Shown: positions 8,104 to 37,680 of the stretch, in pieces
Numbering within the stretch: the stretch's first letter is position 1
How the letters are laid out: every line of letters begins with the position of its first letter
Virus record (IMG/VR): IMGVR_UViG_3300033076_001007
Coordinates: 1-37,680 of that record
DNA length: 37,680 bases
Origin: a virus
Taxonomy: Duplodnaviria > Caudoviricetes
Reading direction: 5' to 3' (one strand)
Made by a program: the position numbers and the translations under genes
Notes under the pieces: model-generated
Seen by the model: only the letters and a program-made list of their open reading frames with translations
Told to the model about the DNA's origin: nothing
The model's database searches: none

Positions 8104-8498
8104 ACGGGAGGCTCGGGCAGGGGTTGCCAGTGGGTTATGCCAATCAACGTCATCAACTCTCGGCAATCTACAAAGCGCCAGTCGTCGTCTCCAAGCCCCT
8201 CCCATTTCATTGCCACGGTATAGTCATCGAACGCAGAAACAACCAGCACTGGAACATCGTATTCCGGCAACCTCTCCCCCACAGGAATCCAGCCGGATGC
8301 GCGGCGCGGCGCACGGTTCCAAGCGTCCACGCACTTCGAATAGATTTCCTCAGCGTCGTTTCGGTCTGCATATCTGACGTTGGCCTCTATCCACCATTCG
8401 TCGCATGGGCACCCGACATAACGCCAGCGATACGTTGACCCGTCCATGATCGACAGTCGCTCGGGCACTTTCCCGCACGGACACGGCTTCAGTTCCAT
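8100..8498 (-). CDS. Lar-like zinc finger fused to DUF551
   Basis: ELKPCPCG..CPC..AWNR followed by WIPVGERLPE...ITHWQPLPEPP. Confidence 0.85.
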   Translation of the reverse strand: MELKPCPCGKVPERLSIMDGSTYRWRYVGCPCDEWWIEANVRYADRNDAEEIYSKCVDAWNRAPRRASGWIPVGERLPEYDVPVLVVSAFDDYTVAMKWEGLGDDDWRFVDCRELMTLIGITHWQPLPEPPV

Positions 8499-23568: not shown

Positions 23569-23855
23569 TCCTGACTGAACAGGAACTAGCCGAACTCACC
23601 GGGAGGGTGAGGCCACAAGCCCAAGCCCGAGAGTTAGCACACCTTGGCATACCGTACAAGCGGCGACGGGACGGGACGATTGTGGTATTGCGTGCGGACA
23701 TATCGGCAGGGAGTCCGCAGGAGCCGATCCTGCGGCTAAGGAATGCGTCCGCGAACAAAGGACCGGCACCTACCTCGATGCGTGTATCAACGCCACGGGG
23801 CGTACTGGTACGTCAGCAAGGGGAAGTGGACCCGACTGGGGCGCGAGCTCGGTGA
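23565..23855 (+). CDS. DUF4224 excisionase-like protein
   Basis: LTEQELAELTG....AQ...L...GIPY....DG...V; directly upstream of and overlapping the integrase. Confidence 0.8.
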   Translation: MILTEQELAELTGRVRPQAQARELAHLGIPYKRRRDGTIVVLRADISAGSPQEPILRLRNASANKGPAPTSMRVSTPRGVLVRQQGEVDPTGARAR

Positions 23856-24723
23856 GGCGCTGCAGGCGTATGCAGCTATCGTCGAGTCTCGCCCTGCCTG
23901 CACCGGGATGCCCGGTCTGATCGACCGCGTGCTCGAGCACATCCGCCCCCGCCTCTCCGCCGCCACCGTCACGCAGTACGAAGCCGCCGCGCGATACCTG
24001 CGGGACGTGTTTGCCGAGTTCCAGCCGGACCAGGTGCTGCCGCGCCACATTGCCGCCATCAAGGTCGATCTCAGCGCCACGCCGAACATGGCGAACCGGG
24101 TGCTCAGTTTCGCGCGCCAGGTGTTCGCGTTCGGCCTCGAATGGGGCGAGGTCGACAGCAACCCCGCGGTCGGGATCAAACGGCACAACGAGCGGAAGCG
24201 CGCCCGCTACATCACCGACGACGAGTACCGGGCGATCTACGCTCACGCGCCGGAGCGCCTTCAGGTCGTCATGGACCTGCTCTACCTAACCGGCCAGCGC
24301 GTCAACGACGTCCTGGCGCTCAAGTGGTCGGCCGTCAGCGAGGCTGGCATCGCTTTCCAGCCGTCCAAAACGGCCGCGAGCACAGGTGCGCGGTTAGTGG
24401 TAAAGGCGTCCCCTGCGCTCGCCCAGGCGCTCGCGCGGTGCAACGGCCGGGGCTACCTGATCGAAGGGCGCTGGGGCAGCCGGGTTGATTACCGCTCGGT
24501 GGTCGAGCAGTGGCGGGCGGCATGCGAGCGGGCCGGGGTCGCAGATGCGCAGCTTCGGGATCTGCGGGCGAAGTCCCTGACGGACGCAAAGGCGCAGGGG
24601 CTGGACCCTACAGCGCTGGCGGCGCATCACTCCCCGGCTATGACGGCGCGGTACATTCGGAGAAGGGAAACGCCGGTGGTCGAGGGGCCGCTGTTACAAA
24701 CTGATACAAAAAAGACCTTGTAA
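23743..24723 (+). CDS. int: Tyrosine integrase
   Basis: R.LP..VY..HGAYWYV N-terminus; catalytic TGQR, K(T), RDLR, H and T.RY. Confidence 0.92.
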   Translation: MRPRTKDRHLPRCVYQRHGAYWYVSKGKWTRLGRELGEALQAYAAIVESRPACTGMPGLIDRVLEHIRPRLSAATVTQYEAAARYLRDVFAEFQPDQVLPRHIAAIKVDLSATPNMANRVLSFARQVFAFGLEWGEVDSNPAVGIKRHNERKRARYITDDEYRAIYAHAPERLQVVMDLLYLTGQRVNDVLALKWSAVSEAGIAFQPSKTAASTGARLVVKASPALAQALARCNGRGYLIEGRWGSRVDYRSVVEQWRAACERAGVADAQLRDLRAKSLTDAKAQGLDPTALAAHHSPAMTARYIRRRETPVVEGPLLQTDTKKTL

Positions 24724-29472: not shown

Positions 29473-32400
29473 TCAGTTCCTGGGCGGGCCGGCGACGAGC
29501 GCCAGCGGGTTGTCTGTTTCTCCTTCTGCGAGCGCCACTGCGCCGCGTACGGTGCGGTCGACTTGAAGTGCCGGGTAATGGAACACGATACCGCCGACGC
29601 GGTTCGCAGAGCGCAGGAACGACTGGTCGACTTCGCCCTGACCGATCTGCACGGCGAGCGCGACCGAATCTCCGAAGATCCGCGTGCCGGCCGGGCCCTG
29701 ATACATGCCGTACCCCTGGACCACGCCAGACAGTTCCCTGAGACCGACAAACTGCCCAAGCATCATCGACGCCTGCTCGCGTAGGATCTTCTCGGCTAGA
29801 GTCTTGTCGTCGTCATCGTCATCGCCCGGCAGAAGCGCTTCACGGATCATCATGCCGAGCACGCTCGGGACCGTGTACAGAAGCAGCATGTCACCGATGA
29901 AGAGTCCGACCTCGCGCGGCTTGGTGAAGTCGGTCTTGTTGTACGACTCGCTCGCGAGGTTGAACGTCGTGTTCATGTAGCTCATAAAAACGGTGAACAG
30001 CTTCGCCATTCCGTTACCGCGCATGATCCCGGCGATGTCACCGGTCTGACCGCCCATCTGGGTATCGCGCACGGCCTGGTCCGCGGTAGACACCGCGTCC
30101 GCTTCTTTCATGCCGGAGTCGAGCGCCTTCAGGTACGCGCCTTGCCAGGTCGGGAAGTCGACCGTGCTCTGCATCTTGGAAATCAGCGCGAACATGGCGG
30201 CCGTCATCTTGGTGCCACCCTTGATCGTGTTCAGCGCCTCGTTGATCTCTTGGGTCAGAGTCCGCGATCGGTTGCGCATGAACTCGCTCTTGCCCAGGAT
30301 CTCCTCGCTCATCTTGAACGGGTTCGAGTAGAACGACTTGAGACCCGCCCACGCCCACGCTGGCCTGAGCCTGACGATCGACTGCGCGTAGCCTGTGACC
30401 TGAAGCGCAGCGGTGGTCAGGTTCAGACCAAGTGACGCTACCGACACGCCGGTGCGCATCCAGAGCAGGCCGCGCTCGAGCGTGTTCATGTAGACCCGGT
30501 CGCCGGCCGCGCTGTCCTGAAGCCACGAGTTCAACTGGTCAAGCGTCTGCTCTCCGTGGTTGGCGATGATCTCCCGCTTGATGTCGCCGTCGCGCAGGAT
30601 GCGGTTGACGTCATTCACCGCTTCGAAATGCGTCAGGTCGTGGATGACGTTGTTCAGGTGGATCGCGATGACGTCGATGTCGAGAGAGATCGGCTGGCCT
30701 TTGACTGCGGATACTCGAGCCTGCCTGTGGCCGTTCTTGGTCTGAGCCATAAACGCTTCGCCAGACATCAGCGCGTTGGCGGCCTCTTCCGTATTCTTGA
30801 AGAACTGCGAGGTGCCCTTCTTGCTGTCGTATTTGATCGGGAAGTACGCGCCATTGATGATCCCGTACTTGGTCCGAACCGGGATGCCTTCGACCTTGCC
30901 GGGCTCGACGCCGTAGACCCGCTTGTGCATGGCCGCGATCTCGGGCCAGTACCCATTGACCAGCGACCAGATCTCTTCGACGAATGCCCAGTCGTCGCGA
31001 GTCAGGTGCTTGTCGAGCGCCTTCATCACTTGCGCTTCGTCCCAACCGTAGCCGTCGAGCAGGCGCTGCTTGTTGCCTTCGTTGCCCAGGTTCAACGCGA
31101 TCATCAGCAAGTTGGCCTTGCTGGCGTTGCCTGAGTAGATCTGGGTCTTCAACTCTGGGATGAACGTCTTGCGGAAGAACTCGTCCTTGACCATGCCGAG
31201 CGTCGCCTTCGACGCCTTCATCTTGATCGCCTGACCGATCGACGTGTAGCGGTCGAACGCCGCCTTCATCTTCTCGGACGCTTCGGTCTTCATGCTGGTC
31301 TCGCGGTTGGCCGCCTCGTTCATCGGGCGCAGCACGTTGCGATGCCAGAAACCGTTGTCCTTGAACCCGTCCAGCAGGCGAATGAAGAACGACGGCTTGC
31401 GGTGCAGGGCGACCAGGTTGCCGGCGGTCTTTGCGACGACGTCCTGCGGACTGTCGTCGAACTCGAGCAGTTCGCCCTTGCCGCGCTCCTGCGCAGACTC
31501 GATCAGCTTCGCCTTGAGTTCGTCGAACTGAAGCTTGTCGATCGCCTTGAGCAGACGGTCCTGATGGCGCGACATATGGTCGAGGTGCTTGACCGCGTCG
31601 TTGATGCCGGTCAGTTCGTCGACCGTCATCTCCTTGTAGTTCTTCTTGAGCGTGAGCCTGGCGAGCTCGGGAGGCAGGAAGATCGGCACCTTCTCCTCGG
31701 CTTTCTTTTCGAGGAACGCCTGCATCTCGGCGACCCAGTCGAGTTGACGAAGCGGGACGTTGAGCAGATCCACCCGCGACAGGATCGCGTCGATCGGGGT
31801 CAGGTAGTCGGTTTTCCCAAGCCGCTCGCGGATGCTCTTCTTGCTGAACGACCGCAAGAACGCGACCTGCTTGTCGGCCGCCGCCTTCGCCTTGGTGGCG
31901 AGCAGGTACATCTGCAGGTTGAGCGCCTCGGCCTGCTTGTGGGCAGACGCGGTGACGTAGTCCTGACGAGCAAGAGCCTCTTCGCTGGCCTTTGCCGCCT
32001 TGCGCATGGCGACCAGGTAGGTGTTCGGCTGGAGATCCCTGACCCTCATCTGCGAGATCCGCCCTTCGGCGATCTGCTTGAAGACCTCGACGCCAGGCAC
32101 CGCGCGCAGGGTTGCAATCCCCTGCCGCTGGGCCTGGCGCTGTTCTGCTGCCGCAGTCTTGAGCATGGGCGCTGCAGCCCGCTGGAGCGCGTGCAAGGCT
32201 TTCAGTTCCGCTTCCAGCACCTGCTCCTGCCTCTCGTTCAGGACGGCCATCCGGGCCTCCTGTGCGCGCAGGCCGGCATCTCTCATCATGTCGCCGTGCT
32301 CGGCCCGCATGCGATCGCCTGCCAGGCGCCGGACCTCTGCCCGCAGGCCAGGAGTCCGGGCGAGCTCGCGGACCATCTCGTCGCCGCTGCCGTAGCCGTA

Positions 32401-35400
32401 AAGCTGGGCAGCCTCGTCCGGGGAGATCGAGTCTTCGATGCGGACGACGTTGTGCTTCTTGAGCGCGGCCAGAATCTCGGGCGCCTCGTCGCCGTAGGTG
32501 GCCTCGATCGCGCGCCGGGAAAGCTTGACCGCTGGCACTTCTCGACCATCGGGAAGCTTGCCAGTGGCAATAGCAACGATCGTGCGGAATGGCCGAGTCT
32601 TGAGCAACTCGGCCTCCACTTCGTTCTCCATCCGCGCGGTCTCTTCCTTCCACCACTTCTTCTGCTCGCGGACCCACTCGTCGTACATCGCCTGCTCGAG
32701 CCGCTGGTGCGCCTCCGCGTTGGCGACCTCGATCGTCTTGCGGTAGTTCTTGAACTGGGCCTCGCTCATGCCGGCAGAGGTGGCGTCGAGGAAGATCGGG
32801 CGGATCTGCAGTTCCTGCCTGGCGGCTTCGATCTCTTCCTGGCTCGCGAGCATGCGGTCCATGACACCGCGCACCTCGTCGGACAGATTCACGTTGAGAG
32901 ACGTGATCTGCTTGTAGATCTGAGTGAGCCAGATCTTGAATCTATGAAACGCGGTGCGCAGTTCAGGCGACGGTGCCTTGCCTTCCATCAGGTACGATTC
33001 GAACCCGCGCGCGAACTGCTCGTGGCGATCGACGTCAAGCTGCGACCAGTCGTCGAGCTTCATCCACTTGAGCAGAGCGTCGGAGTCGTCGAGGTACTGC
33101 TGCTGACGGTCGGTGATCTTTTCGCCGCGGGCGAGCCTTGCCTGCAGTTCACCAACGAAGTCGCGCATCACTTCCAGATACGCGTGCGCGGTCTCGTGCA
33201 TGAACGTCGAGAGGTCTGCGTTCTCGAGCAGACCTATGTTCAGGCGCGACGGCGCGCCTTCCTGGCGGCGGATCTGCATGAAGCCGCGAGGGGCGTTCTC
33301 GTTGCGCTGGTTGAGAATGGTTGGTCTGGCGGTGCCAGATTGCAGGAGGAGGTCGGGGGCGGGCGCCCCCTGATCGGTCAGGAATTGTTCGGCATCGGCG
33401 CGGACCTCGTCCCCGCCGAGTACATCTCCACCGGGTTCTCCGCTCGCGGTTTCTCGAGCCTGGCGATTTGCATCTTCAAGCCCTTGACGAACGGATTGTC
33501 CGACCCACTTCTTGCCTCCGACTCCTTCAGTGCTTCCTTCAGGAGTTCCAGTTGCGAGGGCATCGATCTTCTCCTGGTACTGGGAAGAAAAAGCCACCTG
33601 GGTCTCGTACCAGAACTGCCCGGCAAACGAGACCCCTTCTATTTCGGCCGACACGCGTTCCGCGAGAGCGCGGAGCGCAGAGGCACGCTCCGCTATCCTA
33701 TCACCAACGGCACTATCGTCCAACCCGTCGAACGAGTCCATGCCGTACCGCTGCTCGAACTCGGGGACATACTGCAAACGCACGCCGACCGCGGGCGGCA
33801 TTTCCCCGGCAACGGCAGACGGGCTGCGCCGACCGTCGACGACCACCGTGAAGAACTCGACACCCTGCGTCGCCAGTTCGGCCAGGACTGCTTCAAGACG
33901 GTCGGCCGCCGCTGCGTCCCTGAAGTAGATCTCGACGCCCGGCCGATGGACCAGCGGATCGACGTCTTCGTCCGGGCGCAGCACCCTCGACAGGAACACG
34001 CTGTCCTGCTTCGCAGCCTGCGCTTCCTTCAGCATCCGCAGCCAAAGCGGGCTGGCATCGAAACCTTCGCGCGCGACGACCTCAAGATCCAGCGAACGCT
34101 CGACGCCGCCATAGCGACCTTCGGTTGCCAGCGCCTTCGAGCCCAGAACAGTGGCGCCGTCGTCGGCTTCGTAGATCGCCGCGCGGATCGACTCGGACAA
34201 CCGCACCATGTCGGTGTCAGTTGGCACATAATCGACGCCCTGCGTATCCGCGGACATCTGGGTCGACAGGCCGCCGACGAACCGGTCGACCGTGCGTTCC
34301 AGCGTAGCCAGTTCGGCGCGCGCTTCCGCCTTCTGCTCCGGCTTCGACCGCGACGAGTCCAAGATCCGCCGCAGTTCTTTGATCCGTGCCTGCTTGGCCG
34401 ATCCCGTCAAGTCAGCCTCGAGCTCAAACGAACCACCCTCGCCGGCCACACTGGTCCAGTTGTTGACCGTCCAGAGTTCCTTCTCGATGAACCACACGAC
34501 GGCCTGCAAGTCGTCGTCGTTGATCTCTGCCAGGGTTTTGTCGGTCTTCAACTCCGCGTCGGACCTGATGCGCTTGACGGCTTCAGAGAACACGTCCTGC
34601 CCAAACCCGAACTGCAGAGTGGTCGATCCGTCCTCGCGCATCTCGCCGGAGACGCCGGTCTCAGCCATGCTGGGGATGCGGCGACCGCCGGCCAGGCGCT
34701 GAAGCATGCGCGCCGCCCAGACGTCGATCGTGGCGCGCTCGCGGAACCCGATGAGGTTGCCGGAGAAGTTGACGGCTTTCGGCGCCGTGCCGCCTCTAGC
34801 GATGTCGGCGTCAGCATTGCGCACCACGCGCCACAGGCCGACCATCGCGCGGGCGACGTTGCGGCCGTTGAAGCCGTAGTTCTTCCCGCTTTCCTTGGTC
34901 GGAAGCATGGACGCCGGCAGCTTCCGCGCTTCCTTCAGCGCGTCGAGCTTGGCCTGATACTCAGGCTGCGCCTTGATGTCCTTCTTCGACAGGCCGATCG
35001 TGAGCCCGGCGTTGAAGTACGCCTTCAGGTCGGACTCGAGCGCGTCGATGTTGTCTGCCCACGCCTCCCACTGAACGATGAGCTTGTCGAAATCGCCGCG
35101 CATCGCCCGGCGCAGGGAGTCGACAGCATTGGACCAGTTATCGCGAACCGGCGTGTTCGGACTGGTAGCGCCGAGCAGATCGGCGAACAGATCGCCTAGA
35201 CCGCCGAACTCCTGGCGCAGCCGGGTCCGCATGGACTTGTACCATCCAGCTTGGGCCAGGATGTTCTGCGCGTTCTTGTCTCCAGCCTGCGCGCGCGCGA
35301 ACACTCGCCGCACTTCTTCCGTCATGCTTTTGGCGAGCGCGTTGACCCTACGCTTGCGCTCTGGCGTGCCTTCCCCAAGTTGCCTGCCATCTGCGTCAGA

Positions 35401-37680
35401 ACTGAACGAGTATGAGGTCTTCTGGTACTCGTGGGTCACCTTGCCGTCTTCGACCTTGGTGCGCAGGTACACGAGCGGCGCCCAGCCTGCTGCCTGCGGG
35501 TGTGCCAGTTTGTGCGCCCTGACGGCGGCCGTAATCTCGCGAACCGATATGCCTACGCGATCAGCAGACTCCTCGATCGCTGCGCGCTCTTCTTTGCTGA
35601 TCAGCGCACGTTGTCCAGTAGCACGCTCCCCACGCTCGGCAACCATCTGCAGGCGATCGACGGCTGGCTTTGCGCTCTGATACAGCGTCTGCTCAATCTG
35701 CTCGTCATCGAACACAACGAAAATATTGTCGAGCGGCCCGCCGTCGTAGGTGTTTAACAGGATAACACCATCATGGCCCGCGGCTTTCGCCTTCGCGATC
35801 ACGCTCGCGTAGGACTCCTCGCGGTACGACTGCCCCTTGTAGTCGTGGACGTAGGGGTTCTTGAAGTGCAGGCGGGCGGGGTAGACTACGGGGGAGGTCG
35901 GCTCAAACGGAGGTTCTCCAAACGCGCGAACATAAGCCGCATACGCCTTGTGCGGCGTATCCATTATCTTGCGTGCTTGAGCAACAATCTTCTGCACAGA
36001 GTAATCTGGGTTTGACGATTTCACTTCGTCATAGATAAACGCCCACAATTCCTTCTTTCTGTTAAGCGCAAGATCCTCAACGTCAAGGCTTTCAATGTTC
36101 GGACCAGTGTAACTATTGCTAGTCTCAGGCCTCCCCGCAAAAAAGTGCCCCATCCTCGCGCTCGGCGCGCCAGTGTTCGAACCAAGAACGTCGGAGCGGA
36201 ACCCTTCCTCCGCGATGCGGGCGGACGAGGAGCCGTGGAAGCCGCGGACGGTGACGGGCTTGCCGGTGGCGAAGCGGGTGTCTTCTCCTTGCTGCGTGAT
36301 CTGATCAAGACCGGCAATGATCTCGTTTATTCTTCGACGAGCGTCAGCGACATCTTCAGGTCTGCCAGCAGACTGCTCCTCCATCTTTCTAAGACGCTCG
36401 ATCGCAACGGTTGCGTCATAGGCAACTTGTTCGACGCTTGTCCCCATCCTGTCGAGAGTCGTGTATCCGAGAGAGAACAGCGCGTCATCGCTGAATGCAG
36501 ACATGTCTGGAGGCTTCGGCGCAGCATCCCCAACAAAGTCACCGGTCGGCTCGCGCGTCGGCCCGATCTGATTCACGATCGATCCGTCAGGCGCGAGCGC
36601 GTACTGCGAGATGTCGAGCCCGCGCTCGGCGATGATCTCCTCGACGTCGCGCCCCTCGACCTCTGCCTGCTGGGTCCAGATGCGGGCAAAGATCTTGGCG
36701 TTGGTCTCGGCGGTCTCGCGGCCGTGACCGAGATCCATGAGGCGTTCGGCGGTGCGCTTCTCTAGGGCGGCGCGTTTTTCTTCCTTCGCCTGAACCTGCG
36801 CGATGTCCTGCTCGCCCTTCTCCTTGATGTACTGCTCGGCTTCGCGCGCATTCATCTGGTCAGGCTCGACTCGGATCACGCTGGCGAAGTACTTGTTGTG
36901 CTCGCTCTTGCCGAGCGTGCGCGCGTACTTGCCCATCGGGATGGACAGTTGGTGCTGACCTTCTGCCGCCTGCTTGTACTGCTGGACGTCGCCAAGCACC
37001 TCGACAGCGGCCTGCTCCGGCTCGACGCCTTGCGACTGCCAGTAGGTGTCCCAGTCTGCGACGTCGACGTAGACGTTGTCCTGGCTGGCGCTGCCGACGT
37101 ACTCGGGCGCAGACCGCGTCTGCGCGAGCCGGTCGCCCATCTCCAGCAGGCTGCGCTCGATCGTCTTGGCGCGACGGTAATCGATGATGTCGTTCGCCGT
37201 GCTCGGCGCGGACATGACGCCACCGAACGCAGCGCCAGTGACGCCGCCGGCCAGGCCCGCCTTCAACCACTCTGCGGTGTTCTCGTCAGTAAAGAGGTGC
37301 TCGACAAACTTGTCGTAGGTGATCGGGTTCTTCTCGTCCGCGTTCAGCGTCAGGAAGCTCTTCGCGAAAGCCGGCGTGAACTCCTGCAGCGTCTCAGTCG
37401 CGCCTTCTGCCAGGAAGTTGCCTGCAATGACTTTGCCGATCCGCGTCAGGATGCCGCGCACGGTCGGCGAGTTGATGGCGCTCTTGACCGCCTTGCGCTG
37501 GAACAGTCTGCGAACCGCGACCGCCGCAGGGCTGATCATCGCTTCAGGACCGAACGCGGACTCAAGCAGACCGTTCACGCCGCCGACCGCGATCGAGGCA
37601 TAAGCCGCGTCCTGCGGGTCGACGCCGGGGATGCTGCGCAGTTCGTCCCAGGCGAGCGCGGCTTCGAGCTCGAACGCGCC
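29473..37680 (-). CDS. Giant polyvalent internal virion (ejection) protein, >2735 aa, 5'-truncated
   Basis: The frame stays open from 37578 to the window edge (34 more codons). Contains an ART-like segment (FHGS..G.FF..S..Y..KNP..GHDGV), an HhH-glycosylase-like segment (WY..ATSP..TIDVWAAR..LQAVVW) and a zincin-like HETAH..HEQFA. Confidence 0.9.
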   Translation of the reverse strand, partial: GAFELEAALAWDELRSIPGVDPQDAAYASIAVGGVNGLLESAFGPEAMISPAAVAVRRLFQRKAVKSAINSPTVRGILTRIGKVIAGNFLAEGATETLQEFTPAFAKSFLTLNADEKNPITYDKFVEHLFTDENTAEWLKAGLAGGVTGAAFGGVMSAPSTANDIIDYRRAKTIERSLLEMGDRLAQTRSAPEYVGSASQDNVYVDVADWDTYWQSQGVEPEQAAVEVLGDVQQYKQAAEGQHQLSIPMGKYARTLGKSEHNKYFASVIRVEPDQMNAREAEQYIKEKGEQDIAQVQAKEEKRAALEKRTAERLMDLGHGRETAETNAKIFARIWTQQAEVEGRDVEEIIAERGLDISQYALAPDGSIVNQIGPTREPTGDFVGDAAPKPPDMSAFSDDALFSLGYTTLDRMGTSVEQVAYDATVAIERLRKMEEQSAGRPEDVADARRRINEIIAGLDQITQQGEDTRFATGKPVTVRGFHGSSSARIAEEGFRSDVLGSNTGAPSARMGHFFAGRPETSNSYTGPNIESLDVEDLALNRKKELWAFIYDEVKSSNPDYSVQKIVAQARKIMDTPHKAYAAYVRAFGEPPFEPTSPVVYPARLHFKNPYVHDYKGQSYREESYASVIAKAKAAGHDGVILLNTYDGGPLDNIFVVFDDEQIEQTLYQSAKPAVDRLQMVAERGERATGQRALISKEERAAIEESADRVGISVREITAAVRAHKLAHPQAAGWAPLVYLRTKVEDGKVTHEYQKTSYSFSSDADGRQLGEGTPERKRRVNALAKSMTEEVRRVFARAQAGDKNAQNILAQAGWYKSMRTRLRQEFGGLGDLFADLLGATSPNTPVRDNWSNAVDSLRRAMRGDFDKLIVQWEAWADNIDALESDLKAYFNAGLTIGLSKKDIKAQPEYQAKLDALKEARKLPASMLPTKESGKNYGFNGRNVARAMVGLWRVVRNADADIARGGTAPKAVNFSGNLIGFRERATIDVWAARMLQRLAGGRRIPSMAETGVSGEMREDGSTTLQFGFGQDVFSEAVKRIRSDAELKTDKTLAEINDDDLQAVVWFIEKELWTVNNWTSVAGEGGSFELEADLTGSAKQARIKELRRILDSSRSKPEQKAEARAELATLERTVDRFVGGLSTQMSADTQGVDYVPTDTDMVRLSESIRAAIYEADDGATVLGSKALATEGRYGGVERSLDLEVVAREGFDASPLWLRMLKEAQAAKQDSVFLSRVLRPDEDVDPLVHRPGVEIYFRDAAAADRLEAVLAELATQGVEFFTVVVDGRRSPSAVAGEMPPAVGVRLQYVPEFEQRYGMDSFDGLDDSAVGDRIAERASALRALAERVSAEIEGVSFAGQFWYETQVAFSSQYQEKIDALATGTPEGSTEGVGGKKWVGQSVRQGLEDANRQARETASGEPGGDVLGGDEVRADAEQFLTDQGAPAPDLLLQSGTARPTILNQRNENAPRGFMQIRRQEGAPSRLNIGLLENADLSTFMHETAHAYLEVMRDFVGELQARLARGEKITDRQQQYLDDSDALLKWMKLDDWSQLDVDRHEQFARGFESYLMEGKAPSPELRTAFHRFKIWLTQIYKQITSLNVNLSDEVRGVMDRMLASQEEIEAARQELQIRPIFLDATSAGMSEAQFKNYRKTIEVANAEAHQRLEQAMYDEWVREQKKWWKEETARMENEVEAELLKTRPFRTIVAIATGKLPDGREVPAVKLSRRAIEATYGDEAPEILAALKKHNVVRIEDSISPDEAAQLYGYGSGDEMVRELARTPGLRAEVRRLAGDRMRAEHGDMMRDAGLRAQEARMAVLNERQEQVLEAELKALHALQRAAAPMLKTAAAEQRQAQRQGIATLRAVPGVEVFKQIAEGRISQMRVRDLQPNTYLVAMRKAAKASEEALARQDYVTASAHKQAEALNLQMYLLATKAKAAADKQVAFLRSFSKKSIRERLGKTDYLTPIDAILSRVDLLNVPLRQLDWVAEMQAFLEKKAEEKVPIFLPPELARLTLKKNYKEMTVDELTGINDAVKHLDHMSRHQDRLLKAIDKLQFDELKAKLIESAQERGKGELLEFDDSPQDVVAKTAGNLVALHRKPSFFIRLLDGFKDNGFWHRNVLRPMNEAANRETSMKTEASEKMKAAFDRYTSIGQAIKMKASKATLGMVKDEFFRKTFIPELKTQIYSGNASKANLLMIALNLGNEGNKQRLLDGYGWDEAQVMKALDKHLTRDDWAFVEEIWSLVNGYWPEIAAMHKRVYGVEPGKVEGIPVRTKYGIINGAYFPIKYDSKKGTSQFFKNTEEAANALMSGEAFMAQTKNGHRQARVSAVKGQPISLDIDVIAIHLNNVIHDLTHFEAVNDVNRILRDGDIKREIIANHGEQTLDQLNSWLQDSAAGDRVYMNTLERGLLWMRTGVSVASLGLNLTTAALQVTGYAQSIVRLRPAWAWAGLKSFYSNPFKMSEEILGKSEFMRNRSRTLTQEINEALNTIKGGTKMTAAMFALISKMQSTVDFPTWQGAYLKALDSGMKEADAVSTADQAVRDTQMGGQTGDIAGIMRGNGMAKLFTVFMSYMNTTFNLASESYNKTDFTKPREVGLFIGDMLLLYTVPSVLGMMIREALLPGDDDDDDKTLAEKILREQASMMLGQFVGLRELSGVVQGYGMYQGPAGTRIFGDSVALAVQIGQGEVDQSFLRSANRVGGIVFHYPALQVDRTVRGAVALAEGETDNPLALVAGPPRN
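33378..33563 (-). CDS. 61-aa gene nested out of frame in the giant protein gene
   Basis: AGGAG 7 nt before ATG; MPSQLELLKEALKESEARSGSDNPFVKGLKMQIARLEK helix-turn-helix hairpin pattern; G/C-ending codons shift to this frame. Confidence 0.65.
   Translation of the reverse strand: MPSQLELLKEALKESEARSGSDNPFVKGLKMQIARLEKPRAENPVEMYSAGTRSAPMPNNS

Follow-up and report, generated by a model that had tools for sequence, protein, structure and literature searches.

A gene nested out of frame within a giant phage protein gene encodes a candidate antidote to the adjoining enzyme module

Introduction

Small open reading frames (ORFs) lying directly after toxin domains are the usual site of immunity genes, as described in PMC5576092. 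In the MuF toxins of temperate phages treated there, a structural-module protein carries an enzyme domain and a short unannotated ORF stands next as the putative immunity gene. Here we examine a related arrangement in a Caudoviricetes sequence of 37,680 nucleotides (nt), IMG/VR record IMGVR_UViG_3300033076_001007, positions 1 to 37,680, the whole of which is called the window below. In it, an unannotated gene of 61 amino acids (aa) is nested out of frame in the gene of a giant protein, directly behind an enzyme module, domains A and B, which we call the cassette. Unlike MuF toxins, the locus has no MuF domain: there is no match to one in the part of the giant protein present, whose true N-terminus lies beyond the record. 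The cassette is also internal to a protein of 2,700-3,900 aa, here with about 1,360 residues behind it, which is not the MuF toxin layout, and its enzyme is helix-hairpin-helix (HhH)-like plus S-adenosylmethionine (SAM)-lyase-like. Because the cassette is internal rather than C-terminal, an antidote gene for it would be buried in another frame.

Two other described systems place one gene within another. Among the Rpn intragenic antitoxins, in the account of PMC10327210, RpnS blocks the toxic long product by direct binding, an interaction that is predicted here. RpnS, however, is an in-frame C-terminal piece of RpnL that serves host defence, whereas the small gene described here belongs to a phage, is read in a shifted frame and encodes a protein with no sequence relation to its partner. 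The embedded spanins Rz/Rz1 (PMC6139136) are likewise same-strand genes, one inside the other, whose products form a complex (here a predicted one) and which gene callers usually miss. In contrast to Rz/Rz1, our peptide (P0001) contains neither a cysteine nor a hydrophobic signal stretch, so that lipoprotein and membrane signals are absent, and its role is not lysis. According to the spanin survey (PMC6139136), no spanin family includes embedded members as well as overlapped or separated ones, whereas embedded, end-overlapping and orphan forms occur here.

The giant protein itself resembles the polyvalent proteins of PMC5512222, in which unrelated enzyme domains, ART-like and zincin-like peptidase domains among them, are joined in one giant phage protein. 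The main text of that paper contains neither ‘glycosylase’ nor ‘overlap’, and we saw no nested partner gene described there; its supplementary domain lists might name A or B. Domain B has likenesses to the phage SAM lyases Svi3-3 and T3 SAMase as described in PMC7877911 and PMC12255297, sharing a ferredoxin-like fold in its model and, in its first repeat, the G-x-Y, Glu and Gln-acidic residues. It differs in being a tandem repeat fused to an HhH-like domain within a giant protein, as against a small homotrimer, and its Glu-to-Gln spacing is 31 residues where the phage SAM lyases have 35. The system belongs to none of the MuF, Rpn and spanin families, and searches of the open-access literature for nested or out-of-frame phage antitoxin or immunity genes, for DUF7178, and for a SAM lyase with a glycosylase and an inhibitor listed nothing describing it. 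We show that the small gene is a conserved gene under selection, and argue that its product is probably a co-translated inhibitor that would hold a virion-bound enzyme inactive until injection, a reading to which we give a probability of roughly 0.65.

Results

The nested gene and its conservation

The nested ORF (33378..33563, minus strand) begins with an ATG at 33563-33561 and continues for 61 sense codons to a TGA whose end is 33378. Its Shine-Dalgarno sequence AGGAG (33571..33575, minus strand) lies 7 nt 5′ of the ATG and is read in the main frame within the codons CAG GAG (Gln-Glu). The ORF is in the +1 frame relative to the giant ORF, overlaps main-frame residues 1373-1434 and lies wholly inside 29473-37680, in agreement with the earlier note on this DNA, which had reported an AGGAG-7 nt-ATG start and a 61-aa ORF within the giant gene. 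P0001 consists of two helices joined by a G-x-D-N-P turn, followed by a C-terminal tail. The peptide has no family match in Pfam, PHROGs, PADLOC or NCBIfam, and in the ESM Atlas both it and domain B matched unnamed clusters only, under 0.9. Logan contigs from run X1, which may be the source sample, span the nested ORF with zero differences in records 4, 6 and 8, and an assembly error is thereby excluded. No RNA data set was listed as containing the sequence, an outcome without bearing on expression. No sigma-70-like promoter was found in 33000-34600, and separate expression of the small gene in a lysogen is thus unsupported.

Codon use differs between the two frames. Over the overlap, the nested frame has a G+C content of third codon positions (GC3) of 0.80 and the main frame one of 0.45, against 0.78-0.85 in the rest of the giant gene. 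The earlier note had drawn attention to this contrast, and it is real in the window; as a general rule it does not stand, since codon fit is better in the nested frame than in the main frame in 30 of 50 loci, with the gap widest in GC-rich loci. A scan of the window's giant gene for further nested ORFs found none with a codon fit above that of the main frame.

To avoid the circularity of peptide queries, loci were gathered with main-frame domain queries alone, with the domain B loci being the best 80 of 316. The first 80 loci gave 72 that could be resolved (8 could not) and 50 distinct ones, and the total of 150, 6 of them cut by contig ends, gave 79 distinct loci. Among the 50, which are related and whose counts are not independent trials, an ATG in exact register is found in 49, arising from a GAT or AAT codon, where the background frequency of Asp/Asn codons ending in T is 40% in the cassette. 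The frame is open for at least 53 codons in all 50 (background: 27% of 50-codon +1-frame windows in the cassette), and 40 have an AGGA, GGAG or GAGG word at most 16 nt upstream of the ATG. Extended to the 79 distinct loci, the small gene (a +1-frame match to the peptide profile that has an ATG and stays open for 50 codons or more) sits directly behind the enzyme module and is co-inherited with it in 78; the profile includes many of these loci, and loci outside its alignment also matched. In the remaining locus, L131, an ATG ORF of 54 codons lies at that register. This linkage to the cassette is kept down to about 30% identity of domain B, in embedded and overlapped layouts. Co-inheritance of the small gene with the neighbouring domains, which the earlier note had proposed, is therefore borne out for the whole 33565-35664 cassette, and the opposite outcome, homologues that keep the main frame but lose the nested ATG or gain stops, was looked for and not found.

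Searches with the peptide returned 27 proteins, each aligned from the Met at its start, and a profile search returned 376 cluster representatives at E <= 0.001; among the matches listed, most are 50-120 aa long and align from residue 1. Searches by tblastn gave no match of peptide or cassette in cultured phages and no match of the cassette in plasmids, sets in which close records may be missing.

Frame-specific selection, a check that the earlier note had suggested, was measured in 47 of 60 distinct loci (ATG at the register, read-through, B identity at least 42%). In 45 close pairs, the nested frame has a dNN/dNS of 0.48 (0.34-0.66) and the main frame, over the overlap, a dNN/dSN of 1.05 (0.71-1.51); all 1,081 pairs give 0.76 and 1.15, respectively. 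The pairs are not independent, and the bootstrap behind these intervals is over codons only. In domain B, differences by main-frame codon position are 0.077, 0.049 and 0.28, the third being highest, and across the overlap they follow the nested-frame positions instead (0.142, 0.113, 0.181). Purifying selection thus acts on the nested frame, and none is detectable on the giant frame across the overlap. The term ‘overprinted’, which the earlier note had applied to the small gene, probably has the direction wrong: because the nested frame is the selected and codon-adapted one and the giant frame crosses it as a free linker, it is the linker that probably reads through an existing gene.

One could still suppose that the ORF is a by-product of main-frame residues, with Gln-Glu giving AGGAG and Asp-Ala giving ATG, or that it is an alternative C-terminus reached by frameshifting. 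In close relatives the Shine-Dalgarno sequence and the ATG do fall within a conserved main-frame YQEKID stretch. This explanation is hardly credible, as the GAT/AAT codon is present in 49 of 50 loci against the 40% background, selection acts on the nested frame, and the ORF persists both in copies that lack the giant gene (orphans, below) and where the main frame stops 12-13 codons past domain B (L121, L130). A frameshift fusion upstream of the start was rejected, since an in-frame stop directly precedes the ATG in five loci (L017, L018, L047, L048, L049). The small gene is a real, unannotated nested gene that belongs to a large new family.

Further nested ORFs were seen in relatives. In L015, a second nested ORF of 62 codons with a ribosome-binding site (RBS) lies at 8187-8372 in the +1 frame, directly after the small gene, and similar sequence is fused to the C-terminal end of the peptide in L072, L098, L102, P0015 and P0018. 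In L026 (2391 onward) and L084 (7119 onward), +1-frame ORFs of 64 and 169 aa, respectively, each with an RBS, lie inside the giant gene. The 169-aa ORF resembles what we take, from its motif, to be an HNH-type homing endonuclease.

The enzyme cassette and its predicted complex with the peptide

Domain A (giant aa 673-1110; 34351..35664, minus strand) is DUF7178-like, with 38 of 39 domain A members giving a weak, below-threshold match to that family, and is predicted to have an HhH DNA-glycosylase-like fold. It is present in 77 of 79 loci, and the remaining two have no upstream room for it. Its model has a predicted local distance difference test score (pLDDT) of 80, and the best fold match is middling (Z 7.0, root-mean-square deviation (rmsd) 4.8, 186 residues aligned). 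Seven of the top 9 VIA fold rows are OGG, MagIII, Endo III, AGOG or queuine-salvage chains. Two putative catalytic residues, K296 (34777-34779, minus strand) and D314 (34723-34725, minus strand), are invariant in 54 of 54 sequences and stand 18 residues apart. The catalytic Lys120 and Asp138 of Endo III are also 18 residues apart (PMC5924532), a likeness in spacing rather than by residue-by-residue superposition. For A, Foldseek found nothing at E <= 0.001, and searches of PDB sequences with A, B and B repeat 1 yielded no match below E 0.08. On the strength of the fold comparison, domain A may be an HhH-GPD DNA-glycosylase-like enzyme.

Domain B (giant aa 1129-1372; 33565..34296, minus strand) is modelled (pLDDT 93) as two ferredoxin-like repeats. 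Repeat 1 (33967-34296, minus strand) carries the SAM-lyase-like residues G60 (43 of 44 sequences), Y62 (39 of 44, with F in 5), E66 (44 of 44), Q97 (44 of 44) and D98 (41 of 44), which correspond, by motif match and not superposition, to the conserved G56, Y58, E69, Q104 and E105 reported for Svi3-3 in PMC7877911. In the fold search the phage SAM lyase 6zm9 ranked 7 (Z 6.6, rmsd 3.0, 109 aligned) and T3 SAMase (7ock_L) ranked 11 (Z 5.4), with AcrB-like chains above both SAM lyases; Foldseek returned only generic ferredoxin-like rows for B. These residues suggest that B could have SAM-lyase activity.

The earlier note had expected the peptide to be a partner of the adjacent effector domain and had proposed complex prediction as a check. 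We modelled the 700-aa cassette with the peptide, using a 54-sequence alignment for each, together with three controls. The interaction prediction score from aligned errors (ipSAE) was 0.80, 0.87 and 0.90 for the complex (median 0.87) and 0.00 for all three controls; at the same mark, 116 of 157 solved pairs and 2 of 215 mismatched pairs pass in a benchmark that is roughly valid with our own alignments. Contacts are shared between runs to 54% or more, and the pLDDT of the partner does not fall below 67. The model supports binding in the enzyme cleft. Its closest contacts join the peptide hairpin, residues 4-32, to repeat 2 of B, the surface on which the peptide is predicted to dock, and further residues of the peptide line a cleft in A. 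The A interface comprises 39 residues, of which 19 are invariant, compared with 60 of 438 overall (p 2e-8), and the invariant ones include W141, Y142, K296, D314, W316, Q387, W391 and K395. The B interface has 0 of 26 invariant residues. The peptide is thus predicted to bind B and plug the invariant cleft of A, including the putative catalytic Lys and Asp. The model gives no support to the idea that it blocks the SAM-lyase site, as the motif residues lie outside the confident interface.

Covariation was also compared with the model. In a ranking made before the model, 4 of the contacts that the model lists are in the top 20; for B versus the peptide, 5 of 20 are listed contacts, compared with 0-1 under shuffled pairing. 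The number of B-interface residues among the top covarying pairs (9-10 real, 3-12 shuffled) gave no separation and was dropped as evidence.

A peptide that binds the module need not inhibit it. It could be a chaperone, a packaging adaptor or an activating subunit that joins A and B, and the near-complete linkage, together with a model that bridges the two domains and has its closest contacts on B repeat 2, would suit such a role. We consider this unlikely: the putative catalytic residues of A, which are invariant, are covered by the peptide in the model, and intact orphan copies, which have no client, show a pN/pS (nonsynonymous relative to synonymous differences) of 0.29 against the nearest cassette copy (438 codons, 10 pairs).

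Cassette mobility, layouts and orphan copies

The region of giant aa ~670-1430 is mostly 58-74% identical in relatives, while downstream flanks are mostly 24-42% identical, and the block of high identity often stops at the end of the small gene. In L021, L035 and L036 a peptidase block lies upstream of the cassette and not downstream. From one giant protein to another, the cassette and the small gene travel as a unit, as the earlier note had envisaged in describing a cassette that can move inside one ORF. In 14 of 79 loci the main frame ends within 70 codons past domain B and the small gene overlaps the end of the enzyme gene; these 14 fall within one starred 20-row set of a quick, unrooted domain B tree. 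In distant relatives (L121, L123-L130, L184-L203), A and B make up a mid-sized gene of roughly 700-1,000 codons, followed in L123 by an 855-aa gene. In L020, domain B has a frameshift, about 130 nt upstream of the nested ATG (3278), that the near-identical L021, L035 and L036 lack; it reflects either an error of sequencing or a gene that is split.

Searches with the peptide gave 24 metagenome loci, 13 of which have neither cassette nor giant ORF on the contig. Eleven of these orphans are intact, and in L044 and L045 the ORF is broken at its 5′ end. In ten orphans, DNA similarity to phage cassettes starts 11-109 nt upstream of the ATG, with eight different cassette loci giving the best matches. 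Orphan surroundings are bacterial- or island-like: L031 adjoins a type II restriction-modification cluster, L029 has an integrase and a PD-(D/E)XK nuclease as neighbours, and L032 has gas-vesicle genes and a Mokosh-like helicase. What follows the L032 orphan is presumably a HigBA-like pair, labelled from motifs and with no family match. Neither a crude attC pattern near the orphans nor a tRNA or tmRNA in the 13 orphan loci was found. Separately, L033 (171-656) and L043 (510-994) share a 485-nt non-coding element, 93.7% identical and with no Rfam or tRNA match, that stands immediately ahead of different genes, the one in L043 being the orphan; it is possibly a gene-capture platform or the end of a mobile element.

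The orphans also bear on the view that the peptide is an independent small effector, host-directed or anti-defence for example, which linkage alone ties to the cassette. Cassette-free copies and a family as large as the 376 clusters are what this view would expect. We find it very unlikely, given that the complex model passes where the controls do not and that linkage is maintained to about 30% B identity in overlapped and embedded layouts alike.

A different possibility concerns which activity is blocked. Under this alternative the target would be SAM breakdown by B, inhibited directly or allosterically, and hosts would capture the gene to protect their SAM-dependent defences. The SAM-lyase residues of B and the 6zm9 match favour it, as does the toxicity of T3 SAMase at higher expression reported in PMC7877911. 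One orphan adjoins two C5 methylases, and in L032 a SAM-I riboswitch (RF00162; 6694-6798, plus strand; 51.8 bits) with a terminator-like hairpin heads an apparently frameshifted gene, beyond which, 1.2 kb downstream of the riboswitch, lies the orphan. The riboswitch is, however, a single case and is separated from the orphan by a gene, 6zm9 comes no higher than rank 7, the confident interface contains none of the SAM-lyase motif residues, and none of the B interface residues is invariant. We regard this alternative as quite unlikely.

The giant gene and the window

The giant polyvalent protein gene (29473..37680, minus strand; phrog_9880) encodes at least 2,735 aa and is open at its 5′ end, with a start beyond the record. 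On the 5′ side of the cassette, an ART-PolyVal-like domain (35692..36264, minus strand) matches at E 9.5e-6 and 26.9 bits, below the Pfam cut-off of 31.2, and is outside the co-inherited unit. Downstream of the nested gene, an HEXXH motif (HETAH; 33184..33198, minus strand) marks, on our reading of the sequence and following the motif given in PMC5512222, a zincin-like peptidase-like block, which has no Pfam match. ART-PolyVal-like, DUF7178-like and SAM-lyase-like domains and the HEXXH block thus occur in one large polypeptide, as in polyvalent proteins. An antisense ORF of 1,285 codons (31342-35199, plus strand) shadows the giant gene and is probably a by-product of high GC3.

The contig is estimated to be 84% complete, with integrase, helicase, primase-polymerase and tail-fibre-like genes. 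The integrase (23743-24723, plus strand; phrog_1, E 1.6e-38) suggests a temperate phage. Because tail-fibre-like genes adjoin the giant gene, and by analogy with the polyvalent proteins described in PMC5512222, the giant protein may be carried in the virion and injected along with the DNA.

Discussion

The small protein is probably a built-in antidote, because it is predicted to clamp the enzyme module and to plug its likely active site. We propose the following course of events. The gene has its own Shine-Dalgarno sequence and ATG and stays linked to A and B down to about 30% identity; this much the data show. The hairpin of its product would dock on B repeat 2 while peptide residues line the invariant cleft of A. 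Translated from a shared late mRNA, the peptide would silence a DNA-damaging or DNA-modifying enzyme during virion building, and it would be left behind when the giant protein is ejected into the next host. The arrangement may have originated as an enzyme gene with an overlapping antidote gene; upon insertion into giant proteins, the enzyme frame would have come to read through as a linker. Bacteria or mobile islands, finally, may capture the antidote gene with its RBS as protection from the phage enzyme.

Several points weigh against this account. In the 21 loci that were unused for the model, 1 of the top 20 covarying pairs is a listed contact, and model and covariation are not independent because the same alignments underlie both. 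Peptide divergence tracks B rather than A (partial r 0.57 versus 0.13), which fits docking on B or mere linkage. The identity of A rests on Z scores of 5.1-7.0, the sub-threshold DUF7178 match and the Lys/Asp spacing. As the B tree is quick and has no root, the order from overlapping to embedded is only inferred. The orphan pN/pS includes the phage branch, and a search by peptide similarity favours intact orphans. Among species genomes orphans are rare. A genome scan gave a single locus, with the whole cassette present, and a search of 401 genomes from its phylum added none.

A wider picture can be drawn, which we offer tentatively and regard as somewhat doubtful. Giant injected proteins would be built from mobile enzyme-plus-antidote cassettes whose antidotes lie out of frame in linkers; the antidote described here would restrain a new DNA-glycosylase/SAM-lyase tandem that, on entry, acts against or alters host DNA or methylation-based defence; and bacteria would repeatedly take the antidote and its RBS as a one-gene anti-phage defence.

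Hidden genes of this class, inside giant phage genes for virion proteins, escape annotation, and the locus offers them a definite function that can be tested. It also brings to light a pair of uncharacterised enzymes, HhH-glycosylase-like and SAM-lyase-like, for which the predicted inhibitor comes ready-made, so that cloning and assay of the enzymes become feasible. Since one family holds end-overlapping, embedded and orphan forms, the route to gene nesting is open to study. The orphans suggest a possible host counter-defence through capture of the antidote, and if the peptide is indeed an inhibitor that acts until injection, the system would solve a problem posed by polyvalent proteins, namely how toxic enzymes destined for injection can be produced with no damage to the phage's own replication.

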